20,729 nt of DNA from Corallococcus sp. CA054B (GCF_003611625.1 NZ_RAVY01000172.1:1-20729); one strand, 5' to 3'. Counted from the first letter of the stretch, positions 7,003-9,592 are shown. Notes: generated from the letters alone by a model not told the origin. A program made the numbers and translations.

Positions 7003-7030
7003 CGATATTGAAAATGAGAATCGTTATCGA
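7003..7030. promoter_or_regulatory. AT-rich palindrome containing a Fur-box-like 19-mer GAAAATGAGAATCGTTATC (7010-7028); putative iron-responsive operator for the downstream operon
   Basis: 16 of 19 identities to the Fur box consensus GATAATGATAATCATTATC. Flanking inverted repeat TCGATA...TATCGA. Embedded in a ~50-bp AT-rich stretch, striking in a 70% GC genome, and 56 bp upstream of the ATG at 7086. Confidence 0.4.
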
Positions 7031-7085
7031 ATAGAGATCGTCCCCATCGAACGGCGGCGGGTCCCCGCGGCGAAAGGTGACGACG

Positions 7086-8051
7086 ATGAGCAACCCTGGA
7101 GGGGTGGTCCGGAAGAGCGGTGCAAGGTGGTTCGGCATGGGGGCCCTGGCGGCCCTCGCGCTGGCCGTGGTGGCGCCGGGATGCAGCAGCGACGAGTGCG
7201 TGGACGCGTTCGACTGCCGCGATGAGGGCGCGGCCCCCGCGGGCCAGGCCTGGACCTGCAACGCGGACAAGAAGTGCGAACTGCGCACCCTGACGCCGGA
7301 CGAGCAGGAGAATCCGGAGACGGACGCGGGCACGGGCGGTGAGACGGACGCCGGCACGGAGACCGACGCGGGTACGCCCGTGGACGGTGGCGCGGAGCTG
7401 TGCCGCAACGCCGTGGCCTGCTCGGAGCAGAGCATCGACAAGCTCCGGCTCCGGACCAACATCAACGACGGCGGCGTGGTGGAGGAGGGCACGACGGAGG
7501 GCGAGCACCTCACGTTCCTGGACGGCCGCGGGGGCGGCACGAGCGTGCCGGATTCGTACACCTACGCGCGCTTCACGGACATGGGCCTGGAGAAGGTCTC
7601 CATCGATGACCGGTCCTCGCTGGACTCGACGGCGTGGGATGTCGCGGTGCGCCGGTACGTCGTCCGCTTCAACAGCGGCGTGTCCGGCCCGTCGTGCGTG
7701 ACGGTGGCGCAGATGCCAGAAGGGACGACGTTCGAGTCGGTGACGGCCGTGCGCACGGACGCGCAGTTCGTGGCGGAGAACTACTACACCCCCGACACCT
7801 GCACGTTCTCCGGGGACCCGTACGGCATCCAGAGCCCGGCGACGCAGACGCTCTCGTACTGGGACTACCCCGGCTGCGTGGCGATGACGAACAAGGTCTA
7901 CCTCGTCCAGTTGGCGAACGGCCGTCACTTGAAGCTGCAGGTCGCGAGCTTCTACGACCCCGTGGTGCAGGAGGAGTGCAGGACGACGAACGCGGTGAAG
8001 AACACGGCCAGCGCGGGGTCGCTCCGCCTGCGGTGGGCCTGGCTGCCGTGA
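7086..8051 (+). CDS. Secreted/lipoprotein of unknown function with ETDAGT linker repeats; possibly iron- or heme-related given the upstream Fur-like box
   Basis: SD AAAGGTGA 6 nt upstream of the ATG at 7086 (track ORF starts at GTG 7077). Signal peptide with VAPGC motif. Cys-rich N-terminal region. C-terminal KVYLVQLANGRHLKLQVASFYDP. Stop TGA overlaps the next gene's ATG (TGATG). Confidence 0.7.
   Translation: MSNPGGVVRKSGARWFGMGALAALALAVVAPGCSSDECVDAFDCRDEGAAPAGQAWTCNADKKCELRTLTPDEQENPETDAGTGGETDAGTETDAGTPVDGGAELCRNAVACSEQSIDKLRLRTNINDGGVVEEGTTEGEHLTFLDGRGGGTSVPDSYTYARFTDMGLEKVSIDDRSSLDSTAWDVAVRRYVVRFNSGVSGPSCVTVAQMPEGTTFESVTAVRTDAQFVAENYYTPDTCTFSGDPYGIQSPATQTLSYWDYPGCVAMTNKVYLVQLANGRHLKLQVASFYDPVVQEECRTTNAVKNTASAGSLRLRWAWLP
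7317..7376 (+). repeat. Tandem 18-bp coding repeats (ETDAGT x3); the same motif recurs at the C-terminus of the next protein
   Basis: gagacggacgcgggcacg / gagacggacgccggcacg / gagaccgacgcgggtacg, in frame with the lipoprotein CDS. Confidence 0.6.
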
Positions 8052-9592
8052 TGACCCCCGGGGTTCCCACGCTGCTCCTGCTGCTGACTGGCGCGGGAAC
8101 CCCGCGCGGCCTCCCGCACGAGCGGGAGGCCGTGATGGGGCTGGCCGCCGAGTCCGGTCGGCCCACCTCGCCGACCGCGCAAGCGCCGCGCTATGAGCCT
8201 GGGGACACGGTGGAGTCCGTCGTGTCGCCGGGCGAGCGCTTCCTCATCCACTTCACCCGCCAGGGCAAGCACGCCGTGCCCGCGGCGGACGCGGATGGCA
8301 ACGGCGTGCCCGACTTCGTGGAACTCGTCGGACGCACCTATGAACGCGTGGCGACGTTCTACGTGGACCTGGGCTTCCGCCTGCCGCCCGACGACACGAA
8401 TCCTGCCGGGGACGACGGCGGCGACGGCCGCTTCGACGTGTACCTGGTGGACTTCGCGGGGATTGGTGACGGCTCCTTCCGGCAGGAGACCTGTCTGGAC
8501 GGCGTCACGCGCTGCACGGGCTACATGCTCCAGGAGAACGACTTCGCGGGCTACAACTACCCGTCCGACGCCGAGGCCGTGGAGATCCTCGCCAGCCACG
8601 AGTTCTTCCACGCGGTGCAGGCCGCCTACCGGCCCGGACTGGGCGGCATCGCCTCCGAGGGCACCGCTGTCTGGGCCACCGAGCGCTTCGAGCCCGCGCT
8701 CGACGACCTGGAGCGCTTCACCCGCGGCTACATGCTCACCCCGGACAGCCCCCTGGTGCTGGACCCCGCGGGGCCGGGCGTGACCTTCACCTACGGCGCG
8801 GGGCTCTTCTTCCAGTTCCTCTGCGAGCACTACGGTGACGGCGCGCTCCTCGCGTTGCTGGAGGAGTCCGTGCGGCAGCCGGAGGCCCGCTGGCCGGTGC
8901 TGCTGGACACCCGTCTGCGCCGCGACTTCGCCTCCAGCTTCGACGCGGCCTTCGCCCGGTTCGCCACCTGGAACCTGGGCACCGGCGCGCGCGCGACGCC
9001 GGGGTTCGGCTACGCGCGAGGGGAGGGCTATGCGCAGGTGACGACGGCGGCGGCGGCGCTCCCCACCACGAACGAGCGCGTGCGCGTCGCGGCGGCGGCT
9101 TCGCAAATCTTCGAAGTGCCCGGCGGCGCGTCCTTCGTGGGCGCCTCGTTCGAGCCCGAGCCCGGCATCGACCCGGCCACCGTGCACCTGGTCCTCGCGG
9201 CCGTCACGGATGACGCCGTGCTTCGCGTGGTGACCGTGGACGGGCCGGAAGCCCTGCGCGCCCGGGTGGCCGCGGATGACGCCACGCGCGTGATGGTGGC
9301 GGTCGTGGACGGCCGGATGGAAGGCCTGGGGCGTTATGGCCGGCTGTGCATCGCGGCCACCGGCCAGGCCTCGTCCTGCGCGCCACTCGAGGAGACGGAC
9401 GCGGGCACCGATGCGGGCACCGGTGATCCGGGGACCGTCGATGCGGGCAGGCCCGTGGATCCCATCGATGATCCGCGCACGCCCTCGGATGATGGTGGCT
9501 GCCAAGCCTCGGGGGGCCCCCTGTCCGGTGCGCTCGTCGCGCTGCTGCTCGGAGGGGGCCTGCGGGCCCGGCGGCGCTCACGGGCGCGTTAG
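8051..9592 (+). CDS. Secreted HExxH zinc metalloprotease-like protein with C-terminal MYXO-CTERM sorting signal
   Basis: ATG at 8051 inside track ORF 7634..9592; the upstream part is R-rich junk overlapping the previous gene. Hydrophobic N-terminus MTPGVPTLLLLLTGAG. ILASHEFFHAVQ (HExxH) plus downstream GGIASEGTAVW (candidate third-ligand Glu). C-terminal TDAGTDAGT repeat, then DDGGCQASGGPLSGALVALLLGGGLRARRRSRAR (Cys motif, hydrophobic helix, Arg cluster = MYXO-CTERM). Confidence 0.7.
   Translation: MTPGVPTLLLLLTGAGTPRGLPHEREAVMGLAAESGRPTSPTAQAPRYEPGDTVESVVSPGERFLIHFTRQGKHAVPAADADGNGVPDFVELVGRTYERVATFYVDLGFRLPPDDTNPAGDDGGDGRFDVYLVDFAGIGDGSFRQETCLDGVTRCTGYMLQENDFAGYNYPSDAEAVEILASHEFFHAVQAAYRPGLGGIASEGTAVWATERFEPALDDLERFTRGYMLTPDSPLVLDPAGPGVTFTYGAGLFFQFLCEHYGDGALLALLEESVRQPEARWPVLLDTRLRRDFASSFDAAFARFATWNLGTGARATPGFGYARGEGYAQVTTAAAALPTTNERVRVAAAASQIFEVPGGASFVGASFEPEPGIDPATVHLVLAAVTDDAVLRVVTVDGPEALRARVAADDATRVMVAVVDGRMEGLGRYGRLCIAATGQASSCAPLEETDAGTDAGTGDPGTVDAGRPVDPIDDPRTPSDDGGCQASGGPLSGALVALLLGGGLRARRRSRAR

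Follow-up and report, generated by a model that had tools for sequence, protein, structure and literature searches.

The window analysed here, which is the whole 20,729-nucleotide stretch of DNA from Corallococcus sp. CA054B, contains a short AT-rich element followed by two overlapping genes, the first for a HmuY-family lipoprotein and the second for a predicted surface-anchored metalloprotease. The features of this segment, with positions counted from the first nucleotide of the window, are as follows.

7003–7030, + strand: conserved 28-bp element CGATATTGAAAATGAGAATCGTTATCGA, interpreted as a Fur operator
7004–7022, + strand: second candidate Fur box GATATTGAAAATGAGAATC, 14/19, overlapping the core box
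7008–7013, + strand: putative -35 hexamer TTGAAA
7009–7029, + strand: two 7-1-7 repeats, TGAAAATgAGAATCG and TGAGAATcGTTATCG, an alternative reading of the core box
7010–7028, + strand: core 19-bp Fur box GAAAATGAGAATCGTTATC, 16/19 against GATAATGATAATCATTATC
7032–7037, + strand: weak candidate -10 hexamer TAGAGA, 18 nt downstream of the -35 hexamer
7074–7080, + strand: Shine-Dalgarno-like AAGGTGA, 5 nt before the ATG
7086–8051, + strand: gene 1, HmuY-family lipoprotein ('HmuY2', MXAN_6641 orthologue), 321 aa
7182–7184, + strand: codon of the lipobox cysteine, Cys33
7185–7295, + strand: N-terminal Cys-rich module, aa 34–70
7320–7376, + strand: ETDAGT linker repeats of gene 1 in translation, with a tandem repeat at 7320–7360
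7395–8048, + strand: predicted HmuY-fold beta domain, aa 104–321
8049–8053, + strand: TGATG stop/start overlap coupling genes 1 and 2
8051–9592, + strand: gene 2, MXAN_6640-family HExxH metalloprotease with MYXO-CTERM, 513 aa
8246–9118, + strand: predicted catalytic gluzincin-type domain, aa 66–356, with HEFFH at 8597–8611
9065–9358, + strand: C-terminal beta-sandwich, aa 339–436, resembling a pre-peptidase C-terminal or collagen-binding domain
9497–9589, + strand: predicted MYXO-CTERM sorting signal (Cys, hydrophobic helix, Arg-rich tail)

The initial annotation had placed a Fur-box-like palindrome at 7003–7030, in an unusually AT-rich stretch 56 bp upstream of a two-gene unit, and most of this description held. 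Compared with the classical E. coli-type 19-bp consensus, the core box reproduced the claimed 16/19 match and was the only match with three or fewer mismatches in the window, where 4e-5 such matches were expected from composition and none occurred in 100 window shuffles. The stretch at 6989–7038 is the lowest-GC 50-mer of the window (32% GC against a mean of 69%), and the comparison with random AT-rich sequence came out in favour of the site, as only 10 of the 200,000 shuffled versions of this island gave a match to the classical consensus with three or fewer mismatches (P about 5e-5). The match goes beyond what AT-richness gives. The element can be laid out as an array of hexamers at a 6-bp offset (GATATT-GAAAAT-GAGAAT-C-GTTATC), which is also the offset between the core box and the second box returned by the mismatch scan, and the 7-1-7 model yields the alternative pair of repeats. 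The palindrome was recovered in part: by eye it is imperfect, with 9 of 14 pairs matching overall and only the outer 6-bp arms TCGATA/TATCGA (7002–7007 and 7025–7030) perfect, its centre at 7016 lies 3 bp off that of the Fur box, and the automated repeat search did not report it. The distance to the operon required a small correction, the ATG at 7086 lying 55 nt after position 7030. Neither Rfam nor tRNA scanning of the complete window gave a match, and a riboswitch or small RNA as the cause of the conserved block is therefore not supported.

The element probably overlies the putative -35 hexamer and the spacer of the operon promoter. TTGAA of the putative -35 and the leading TA of the putative -10 are both invariant in 14/14 aligned loci, at a spacing of 17–18 nt, and the -10 hexamer itself is weak (3/6). 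Because a strict sigma-70 scan of 6800–9900 returned no promoter, the conserved TTGAA and TA alone determined this placement. Further downstream, the start codon of gene 1 is preceded by the conserved GAAAGGTGA, and CGAAAGGTGACGACGATG, at the Shine-Dalgarno-like motif, is conserved in the Corallococcus loci.

The 28-bp element is the same in ten Corallococcus loci (the present one and nine others) apart from one G/T position, at loci where the flanks and the encoded proteins diverge (53–82% amino-acid identity). In an alignment of 14 loci from five genera, 24 columns are invariant, all of them within 7005–7033, and the resulting core, ATATTGAA.ATG..AATCG.T.TC, is kept in Myxococcus, Pyxidicoccus and Hyalangium, in which the flanks diverge. 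The upstream neighbour here is a major-vault-protein gene; control of that gene was rejected, because the box lies at its 3' end and remains with the downstream operon where the upstream gene changes (L006, L009, L022 and L023). Similar sites accompany iron-related genes elsewhere. The M. stipitatus box is situated in the region that separates the operon from a divergent siderophore-interacting ferric-reductase gene, and a 17/19 Fur box, TTGACTTTGATAATGAGTATCAATATCG, stands upstream of the canonical hmu operons of C. terminator and M. stipitatus, which have the order TonB receptor–HmuY–HemS–binding protein–FecCD–ABC. Related sites precede a heme-type TonB receptor at L006 and L009 and fused operons at L019 and L024, and in a scan of 342 kb of myxobacterial DNA, 19/19 sites with at most four mismatches were upstream of hmuY2 or hmu operons. 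The gene pair is also kept in Sorangiineae, although two of the loci there (L020 and L028) are without a box and a third (L027) has a degenerate one (13/19); because of these three loci, the box is, on the alignments available, a feature of the Cystobacterineae and not of the whole phylum. The loci L010–L016, from a genome scan, have no Fur-like site and are uninformative on the operon because only the N-terminal Cys-rich or linker part is in common. The sequence comparisons support an element that behaves as a conserved operator with classical Fur-box architecture, a candidate Fur site.

Gene 1 (GC3 0.94) encodes a protein named 'HmuY family protein' by NCBI, which scores 48.1 bits against Pfam PF14064 (HmuY; gathering threshold 27, E 1.8e-12) and shares 47% identity with MXAN_6641 (E 8e-80). 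The expectation of a Cys-rich secreted protein or lipoprotein was borne out by 11 Cys residues and by Cys33, which follows the signal-peptide hydrophobic stretch and is invariant in 42/42 homologues; the local lipobox, APGC, is atypical. The N-terminal Cys-rich module (AF2 pLDDT 73–90) is specific to the Corallococcus clade and missing from most homologues, and was found again in the unrelated proteins of L010–L016. In the AF2 model (pLDDT 80), the linker repeats fall below 50 and the beta domain is mostly above 87. Foldseek with this model retrieved BfrB (8b6a, E 6.8e-10, target-normalised TM-score 0.71; phmmer E 4.6e-8) and HmuY (3h8t, E 2.8e-7), and the significant PDB matches, 12 chains, all belong to the HmuY family. 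A comparison with HmuY or hemophore folds had been suggested at the outset, and Pfam and Foldseek agree in this respect; by Pfam score and predicted fold, the product of gene 1 is a HmuY-family protein.

The characterised HmuY proteins coordinate heme iron through His134/His166 in P. gingivalis and through Met/Met in others. In the aligned family of gene 1, no conserved His or Met was found at the known axial heme-ligand positions (His/His, His/Met or Met/Met), a mapping by sequence in which the profile alignment reaches just the residues on either side of the ligand loops. Opposite the invariant Met267 stands Leu175 of P. gingivalis HmuY, a non-ligand, and the Bvu Met ligands align, at low confidence, with Tyr233 and Tyr261. 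Together with Tyr160 and Tyr290, these two tyrosines are invariant or nearly so in the family, and the four could hold a porphyrin, Tyr residues being known to support binding of the porphyrin ring (PMC12106395).

Gene 2 is named 'MXAN_6640 family putative metalloprotease' by NCBI, scores 247.1 bits against NF045524 (cut-off 140) and is 56% identical to MXAN_6640. Because neither a Pfam family at E<=0.1 (and no Peptidase_M30) nor a PDB sequence match was found, its identity was taken from the NCBIfam model and the predicted fold, which for the catalytic domain corresponds to peptidase family M30 (hyicolysin). H183, E184, H187, E203 and E211 are invariant in the family. The proposed HExxH protease with a MYXO-CTERM was recovered as HEFFH and a tripartite tail, GGCQASGGPLSGALVALLLGGGLRARRRSRAR, of the pattern GGCQ...LVALLLGGGL-RARRRSRAR; the TIGR03382 score is borderline, at 14.6 bits just below the 15.85 cut-off, with orthologues at 17.3 and 20.5. 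The invariant Cys, transmembrane helix and Arg-rich end are kept throughout the family, gene 2 included, and resemble the signal whose definition and sorting mechanism are described in PMC11980579. From these models, gene 2 is a gluzincin-fold zinc protease with a predicted MYXO-CTERM surface anchor.

The two genes are coupled by TGATG, as had been noted, and a 4-bp overlap of like kind occurs in other genera. The ETDAGT/TDAGT repeats described as common to both genes were likewise found, as TDAGT-type linker repeats in each. The pair is adjacent in 19/19 loci. In Cystobacter and Archangium it is fused behind a TonB receptor and HmuY, at L006 and L009 a TonB receptor lies within about 4 kb of it, and in some Corallococcus about 3.6 kb separates it from the hmu cluster; no TonB receptor gene was found within the present window. 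The Myxococcaceae have, separately, a classical HmuY beside a TonB receptor.

Published data on the M. xanthus orthologues connect the pair with iron uptake. A supplementary table lists MXAN_6641 as 'Putative Fur box' and 'HmuY homologue', and in the same study predation gave log2 fold changes of +2.6/+2.5 for MXAN_6641 and +2.4/+1.6 for MXAN_6640, and the FPKM profile paralleled that of the heme-cluster gene MXAN_1317 (PMC9548883). In tan strains, MXAN_6641 rose +25/+103/+41/+7-fold and MXAN_6640 +12/+44/+14/+3-fold, and the same strains up-regulated hemin and myxochelin genes (PMC3986340). These inductions, seen in tan phase variants and during predation and neither after a defined iron shift nor in a fur mutant, are correlative. 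The M. xanthus Fur is MXAN_3702, which has Arg at the position specifying recognition of the Fur box over the Per box (PMC12754779); MXAN_6967 is a second Fur-like protein, and the mxc genes are repressed by iron. Iron competition shapes myxobacterial predation (PMC9548883, PMC11388931). The iron/heme reading of the initial annotation is supported by the conserved element, the boxes of hmu operons, the HmuY and protease families and the co-induction of MXAN_6641/6640. Its statement that no role is annotated for such pairs did not survive, given the NCBI family names and the label of MXAN_6641; a Fur box and a HmuY role have already been proposed for the M. xanthus orthologues, and the regulatory idea, not being new, is of limited interest.

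The present analysis provides the motif and its conservation, the organisation as an operon, the folds and the linkage of the two genes, and published M. xanthus work the co-induction. On this evidence we consider it probable, with some reserve, that the 28-bp element is a Fur operator of two overlapping boxes and that the pair is a surface heme scavenger induced by iron starvation. When iron is sufficient, Fur-Fe2+ would sit on the operator and block RNA polymerase; when it is scarce, Fur would leave, and both genes would be transcribed and translated in a coupled manner through the TGATG overlap. Gene 1 would give an outer-membrane or surface lipoprotein with the hemophore-like HmuY fold, and gene 2 a zinc endopeptidase of M30-like fold, tethered to the surface via MYXO-CTERM, myxosortase and type II secretion. 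The pair would probably obtain heme or porphyrin from hemoproteins outside the cell, for instance those of lysed prey. The protease would free the cofactor, and the HmuY-like protein would capture it and presumably pass it on to the HmuR-type TonB receptor of the hmu operon, which is encoded separately and has its own Fur box. A bolder version, which we put forward only tentatively and rate as doubtful, is a dedicated hemoprotein-mining surface machine across Myxococcota, in which the protease strips prey cytochromes and catalases and a ligand-divergent HmuY, possibly using Tyr, passes the heme to HmuR.

The operator and the iron control could also be real and the pair not serve heme acquisition, being merely co-regulated with iron starvation. 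The HmuY-fold protein might then bind metal-free porphyrin, a corrinoid, a peptide or a surface partner, and the protease might act generally in predation and nutrition or process surface proteins. Such a role would fit the missing canonical heme-iron ligands and the position of Met267 opposite a non-ligand residue, the weak or absent binding of the nearest structures, BfrB and BfrC, the separate classical HmuY that Myxococcaceae already own by a TonB receptor, and the window without a receptor gene. However, the fusion into TonB receptor–HmuY operons in two genera, the proximity of some Corallococcus pairs to the hmu cluster, an expression pattern like that of hmu genes and the four tyrosines that could hold a porphyrin (cf. 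PMC12106395) all speak for heme, and we regard a role apart from it as unlikely.

Doubt about the regulator itself carries less weight. Another metal regulator, such as a MXAN_6967-type paralogue (possibly Zur-, Mur- or PerR-like), could place the genes in a zinc, manganese or oxidative-stress response, since Fur-family boxes resemble one another, M. xanthus has two Fur-like proteins and gene 2 encodes a zinc enzyme. The half-site consensus is reportedly TGAnAAT for Fur, TCGTAAT for Zur and TTATAAT for PerR, in the account attributed to Baichoo and Helmann in 2002, and the half-sites here are of the Fur type. The Per-box consensus is also quoted in PMC12754779. Like boxes, moreover, precede heme-uptake operons and a siderophore-reductase gene, the orthologues are induced with myxochelin and hemin genes, the mxc genes are iron-repressed, and M. 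xanthus has no bona fide PerR. Both the half-site sequence and the gene context led to the Zur or PerR reading being discarded, and another regulator is, overall, distinctly improbable. Least credible of all is a plain promoter (-35, spacer and UP-like DNA) in a GC-rich genome with an incidental likeness to a Fur box. TTGAA and the downstream TA are indeed among the invariant positions, and AT-rich promoters are conspicuous at 69% GC, but spacer positions invariant over five genera are unexpected for a plain promoter, the consensus match is improbable even given the composition (5e-5), an independent site of like motif class lies upstream of hmu operons, and expression of the orthologues varies by 10- to 100-fold with iron-related states.

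Read as a Fur operator, the locus offers a clean, strongly conserved candidate against a genomic background of 69% GC, and a Fur matrix for Myxococcaceae could be started from it. It also highlights an uncharacterised conserved pair, a HmuY-like lipoprotein and a surface zinc protease, whose M. xanthus orthologues belong to the genes that show the strongest co-induction with iron uptake. If the pair frees and captures prey heme, this would explain a predator's use of prey iron beyond siderophores and add to the ligand chemistry known for HmuY proteins. Should the hemoprotein-mining machine be real, it would give the first case of a hemophore that is coupled, in its genetics and in its translation, to a protease of its own, and would tie iron piracy directly to bacterial predation.

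The closest known system is the M. xanthus pair MXAN_6641–MXAN_6640, in which the two genes follow each other as they do here, at 47% and 56% amino-acid identity, with a like box, GAATATGAGAATCGTTATC, just upstream. Its neighbours are an ABC transporter and an alkylresorcinol cluster instead of a major-vault-protein gene upstream, and, by comparison, Corallococcus gene 1 has the additional N-terminal Cys-rich module and the protease is without a lipobox Cys. The element resembles the classical E. coli-type Fur box in its 16/19 match, its 6-bp-offset hexamers over the putative -35 and spacer and its place upstream of iron-related genes, and differs in the weak -10 and in the conserved 29-mer, whose dyad has its centre 3 bp away from that of the Fur box. 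Gene 2 shares Cys, hydrophobic helix and Arg-rich tag with MYXO-CTERM/myxosortase (MrtX) proteins such as TraA, with a score just under the NCBIfam cut-off and sorting that is predicted. With M30 peptidases (hyicolysin and lugdulysin) it shares 13% identity only, without a Pfam match at E<=0.1, and it has an added PPC-like beta-sandwich and the MYXO-CTERM anchor.

[quoted passage not shown] The presence of HmuY/HmuR-like pairs in Myxococcus was pointed out in 2009. Compared with the P. gingivalis HmuY–HmuR system, the operon partner here is a protease and not a TonB receptor (Cystobacter and Archangium excepted), this protease is a predicted zinc gluzincin and not a cysteine protease, and the His/His or Met/Met ligands are absent. 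In P. gingivalis, gingipains are the proteases that release heme for the HmuY–HmuR hemophore system. The two systems are nevertheless alike in the HmuY fold, in the lipoprotein, in the logic of an iron-regulated operon, for which the present locus is a candidate, and in the functional pairing, proposed here, of a protease with a heme carrier.

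The initial annotation had placed a Fur box in an AT-rich island upstream of the operon, and both features were recovered. GAAAATGAGAATCGTTATC at 7010–7028 shares 16 of 19 positions with the classical Fur box GATAATGATAATCATTATC, and a mismatch scan of the whole window returned this as the sole site with three or fewer mismatches, with none in 100 shuffles. A second box (7004–7022, 14/19), offset by 6 bp, overlaps the first, and the hexamer array of the element (7003–7030) reads GATATT-GAAAAT-GAGAAT-C-GTTATC. The 50-mer at 6989–7038 has 32% GC, the minimum of a window that averages 69% GC and whose closest relative by sequence comparison is Corallococcus. 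When this island was shuffled, three or fewer mismatches were reached in only 10 of 200,000 shuffles, so the match is not explained by AT-richness. The palindrome proposed for the element held only in part: its outer arms TCGATA/TATCGA pair perfectly, yet the dyad as a whole has only 9 matches among its 14 pairs, and a repeat search of the window did not recover it.

Genuine genes were picked out by codon-position GC, which gave the anticipated two-gene unit downstream of the element:

7086–8051, plus strand: gene 1, HmuY-like lipoprotein, its ATG preceded by a conserved GAAAGGTGA
8051–9592, plus strand: gene 2, HExxH metalloprotease with a MYXO-CTERM tail, coupled to gene 1 via TGATG

Since a small opposite-strand gene ends at 9589, the operon consists of exactly two genes. 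This convergent gene (9589 to about 9850, minus strand) encodes a product with the C-terminus ..SKQETGCDEYER, and its stop codon overlaps that of gene 2. Upstream, a gene for a major vault protein (MVP) homologue ends at 6991, 11 nt ahead of the element. It spans 4715–6991 (plus strand) and encodes a 758-aa bacterial counterpart of the eukaryotic protein, with Vault repeats and an MVP shoulder domain, 93–98% identical in seven of nine Corallococcus loci and much more conserved than the adjoining operon; such homologues have been described in Myxococcales (bioRxiv 10.1101/872010). No TonB receptor or other iron gene was found in the window.

Elsewhere in the window, the DUF5953 and DUF6310 genes at 2491–4307 (minus strand) have a third-position GC of 0.69–0.70, compared with about 0.9 elsewhere, and AT-rich 50-mers occur at 3231–3430; by its composition this region looks foreign, possibly the result of horizontal acquisition. 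The ORF at 9910–10626 (plus strand), without a Pfam or NCBIfam match, carries a 'VPYYSQ' motif resembling those of C39-like peptidase domains. A second intergenic AT-rich stretch (16577–16719, 38–46% GC), flanked by a Kelch/PKD-repeat gene (14291–16729, minus strand) and an M1 aminopeptidase gene (17514–20282), contains no Fur-like site.

Conservation of the element was assessed in nine full-length orthologous loci from other Corallococcus species, in which the gene 1 products are 53–82% identical. The sequence CGATATTGAAAATGA[G/T]AATCGTTATCGA is unchanged in all nine, while the adjoining intergenic bases vary. Extending the alignment to M. xanthus, where the site reads GAATATGAGAATCGTTATC, M. 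stipitatus, Pyxidicoccus and Hyalangium (14 loci in all) left 24 invariant columns, every one within window positions 7005–7033, and the flanks could not be aligned across genera. Two Corallococcus loci (L006 and L009) have no vault-protein gene upstream; M. xanthus has an ABC transporter in its place, and M. stipitatus a siderophore-interacting reductase gene that is transcribed divergently. The element travels with the downstream operon, not with the upstream gene. Of three Sorangiineae loci, L020 and L028 lack the site and L027 retains only a 13/19 remnant, though the gene pair is kept in all of them.

The same type of box was found at canonical heme-uptake operons. In C. terminator and M. 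stipitatus these begin with a small Cys-rich ORF and continue with TonB receptor, HmuY, HemS/ChuX, binding protein, FecCD and ABC ATPase; upstream of both lies TTGACTTTGATAATGAGTATCAATATCG, with a 17/19 Fur box inside it. L006 and L009 carry related sites upstream of their heme-type receptor, and Cystobacter and Archangium upstream of their fused operons. In 342 kb of myxobacterial DNA, all 19 sites with four or fewer mismatches lie upstream of hmuY2 (gene 1) or hmu operons; as the loci were selected for these genes, this demonstrates specificity and not regulon breadth. The evidence thus indicates that the box at 7010–7028 is the putative iron box of these bacteria.

The small Cys-rich ORF (..LRCLCGSLLARLVPEGVELKCRRCHR.., zinc-ribbon-like) that opens the canonical operons downstream of their Fur box (L025 4458–4682; L026 4560–4739; L009 from 10733) had no NCBIfam match. 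In some Corallococcus (L009 8673–13011; L006 5882–9451) a gap of about 3.6 kb separates the gene pair from the canonical heme-uptake cluster, and an opposite-strand NrfH-type tetraheme cytochrome gene sits in between. An 80-aa Cys-containing ORF separates the Fur box from the HmuY-like gene in Hyalangium gracile (L018, 4762–5004).

The lipoprotein was compared with HmuY folds, as had been suggested, and the relationship was confirmed. Gene 1 scores 48 bits against Pfam HmuY (threshold 27), the domain is present in all 284 homologues found, which are all from Myxococcota, and sequence matches in the PDB were BfrB, Bvu, BfrC and HmuY. The AF2 model (mean pLDDT 80) matches HmuY-family structures only, the best being BfrB (E 6.8e-10, target-normalised TM-score 0.71). 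The family conserves the lipobox Cys, six more Cys, Trp184, Trp259, Met267 and several Tyr. The alignment to characterised HmuY proteins shows no conservation of the known heme-iron ligands; Met267 is aligned to Leu175 of P. gingivalis HmuY, and the counterparts of Bvu's two Met ligands are, at low alignment confidence, Tyr233 and Tyr261, both nearly invariant. Heme binding, predicted for this HmuY-like protein, is plausible. Most HmuY-like homologues lack the N-terminal Cys-rich module (aa 34–70; window 7185–7295), which also occurs N-terminally in Myxococcaceae proteins that are otherwise unrelated (L010–L016).

The gene 2 product scores 247 bits against NF045524 (cut-off 140), and its AF2 model averages a pLDDT of 82. 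H183, E184, H187, E203 and E211 are invariant in the family, and the MYXO-CTERM pattern is found in the tail throughout. The N-terminal lipobox Cys is kept in other genera and lost in the Corallococcus clade, where the GCG lipobox is replaced by LLLLLTGAGTP (window 8051–8110); the clade's protease has hence lost N-terminal lipidation and retained the MYXO-CTERM anchor. In all 19 linkage loci, ranging from Myxococcaceae to Polyangiaceae, Chondromyces and Minicystis, the protease gene lies directly 3' of the HmuY-like gene. The order in Cystobacter fuscus and Archangium violaceum is TonB receptor, HmuY, HmuY-like gene and protease, with one Fur-like site ahead.

Published data are available for the M. 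xanthus orthologues MXAN_6641 (47% identical to gene 1) and MXAN_6640 (56% identical to gene 2). During predation their log2 fold changes were +2.57/+2.47 and +2.38/+1.64, respectively, and the pair's FPKM, high at time 0, fell about 10-fold on fresh rich medium and rose again with prey, in parallel with the heme-cluster gene MXAN_1317 (PMC9548883). In tan strains, MXAN_6641 was induced 25-, 103-, 41- and 7-fold and MXAN_6640 12-, 44-, 14- and 3-fold (PMC3986340, Table S1), and these strains also up-regulate hemin and myxochelin genes (PMC3986340).

The most likely mechanism is that Fur-Fe2+ would occupy 7003–7030 and mask a promoter with a predicted -35 TTGAAA (7008–7013) and a weak -10 TAGAGA (7032–7037), a block that iron starvation would lift. 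Both products would then arrive at the cell surface, where the protease may liberate heme from extracellular hemoproteins and the HmuY-like protein may take up the freed heme for an HmuR-type receptor encoded elsewhere. The motif with its conservation, the operon, the folds and the gene linkage come from the present analysis and co-induction with iron genes from published work, whereas Fur as the binder, the promoter position, the ligand and the substrates are predictions. It is conceivable, if rather unlikely, that the pair is regulated in this manner and serves a function other than heme acquisition: the HmuY fold without the known ligands speaks for this, the expression of the M. xanthus orthologue in parallel with a heme-cluster gene against it.

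Binding of a different metal regulator to the element is improbable: M. xanthus does have a second Fur-like gene, MXAN_6967 (PMC3986340), but no true PerR, and in its Fur, MXAN_3702, the Arg responsible for recognising Fur boxes is present (PMC12754779). Hardly credible is a conserved block that acts as a promoter only; the predicted -35 within it speaks for this, the 16/19 box against it. Repression by Fur remains the preferred reading.

Four features were not found in the publications consulted: the operator invariant over five genera, the linkage of a HmuY paralogue to an M30-like MYXO-CTERM protease at every locus examined, the fusion of the pair to hmuR–hmuY operons in Archangiaceae, and the apparent absence of known heme ligands in the HmuY-like protein. 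The claim that no role is annotated for such pairs did not stand. MXAN_6641 and MXAN_6640 were labelled hypothetical proteins in PMC3986340, a Fur-box prediction and HmuY homology had already been noted in M. xanthus, and both families have NCBI names. The operon in the window is the Corallococcus copy of this MXAN_6641/6640 locus.
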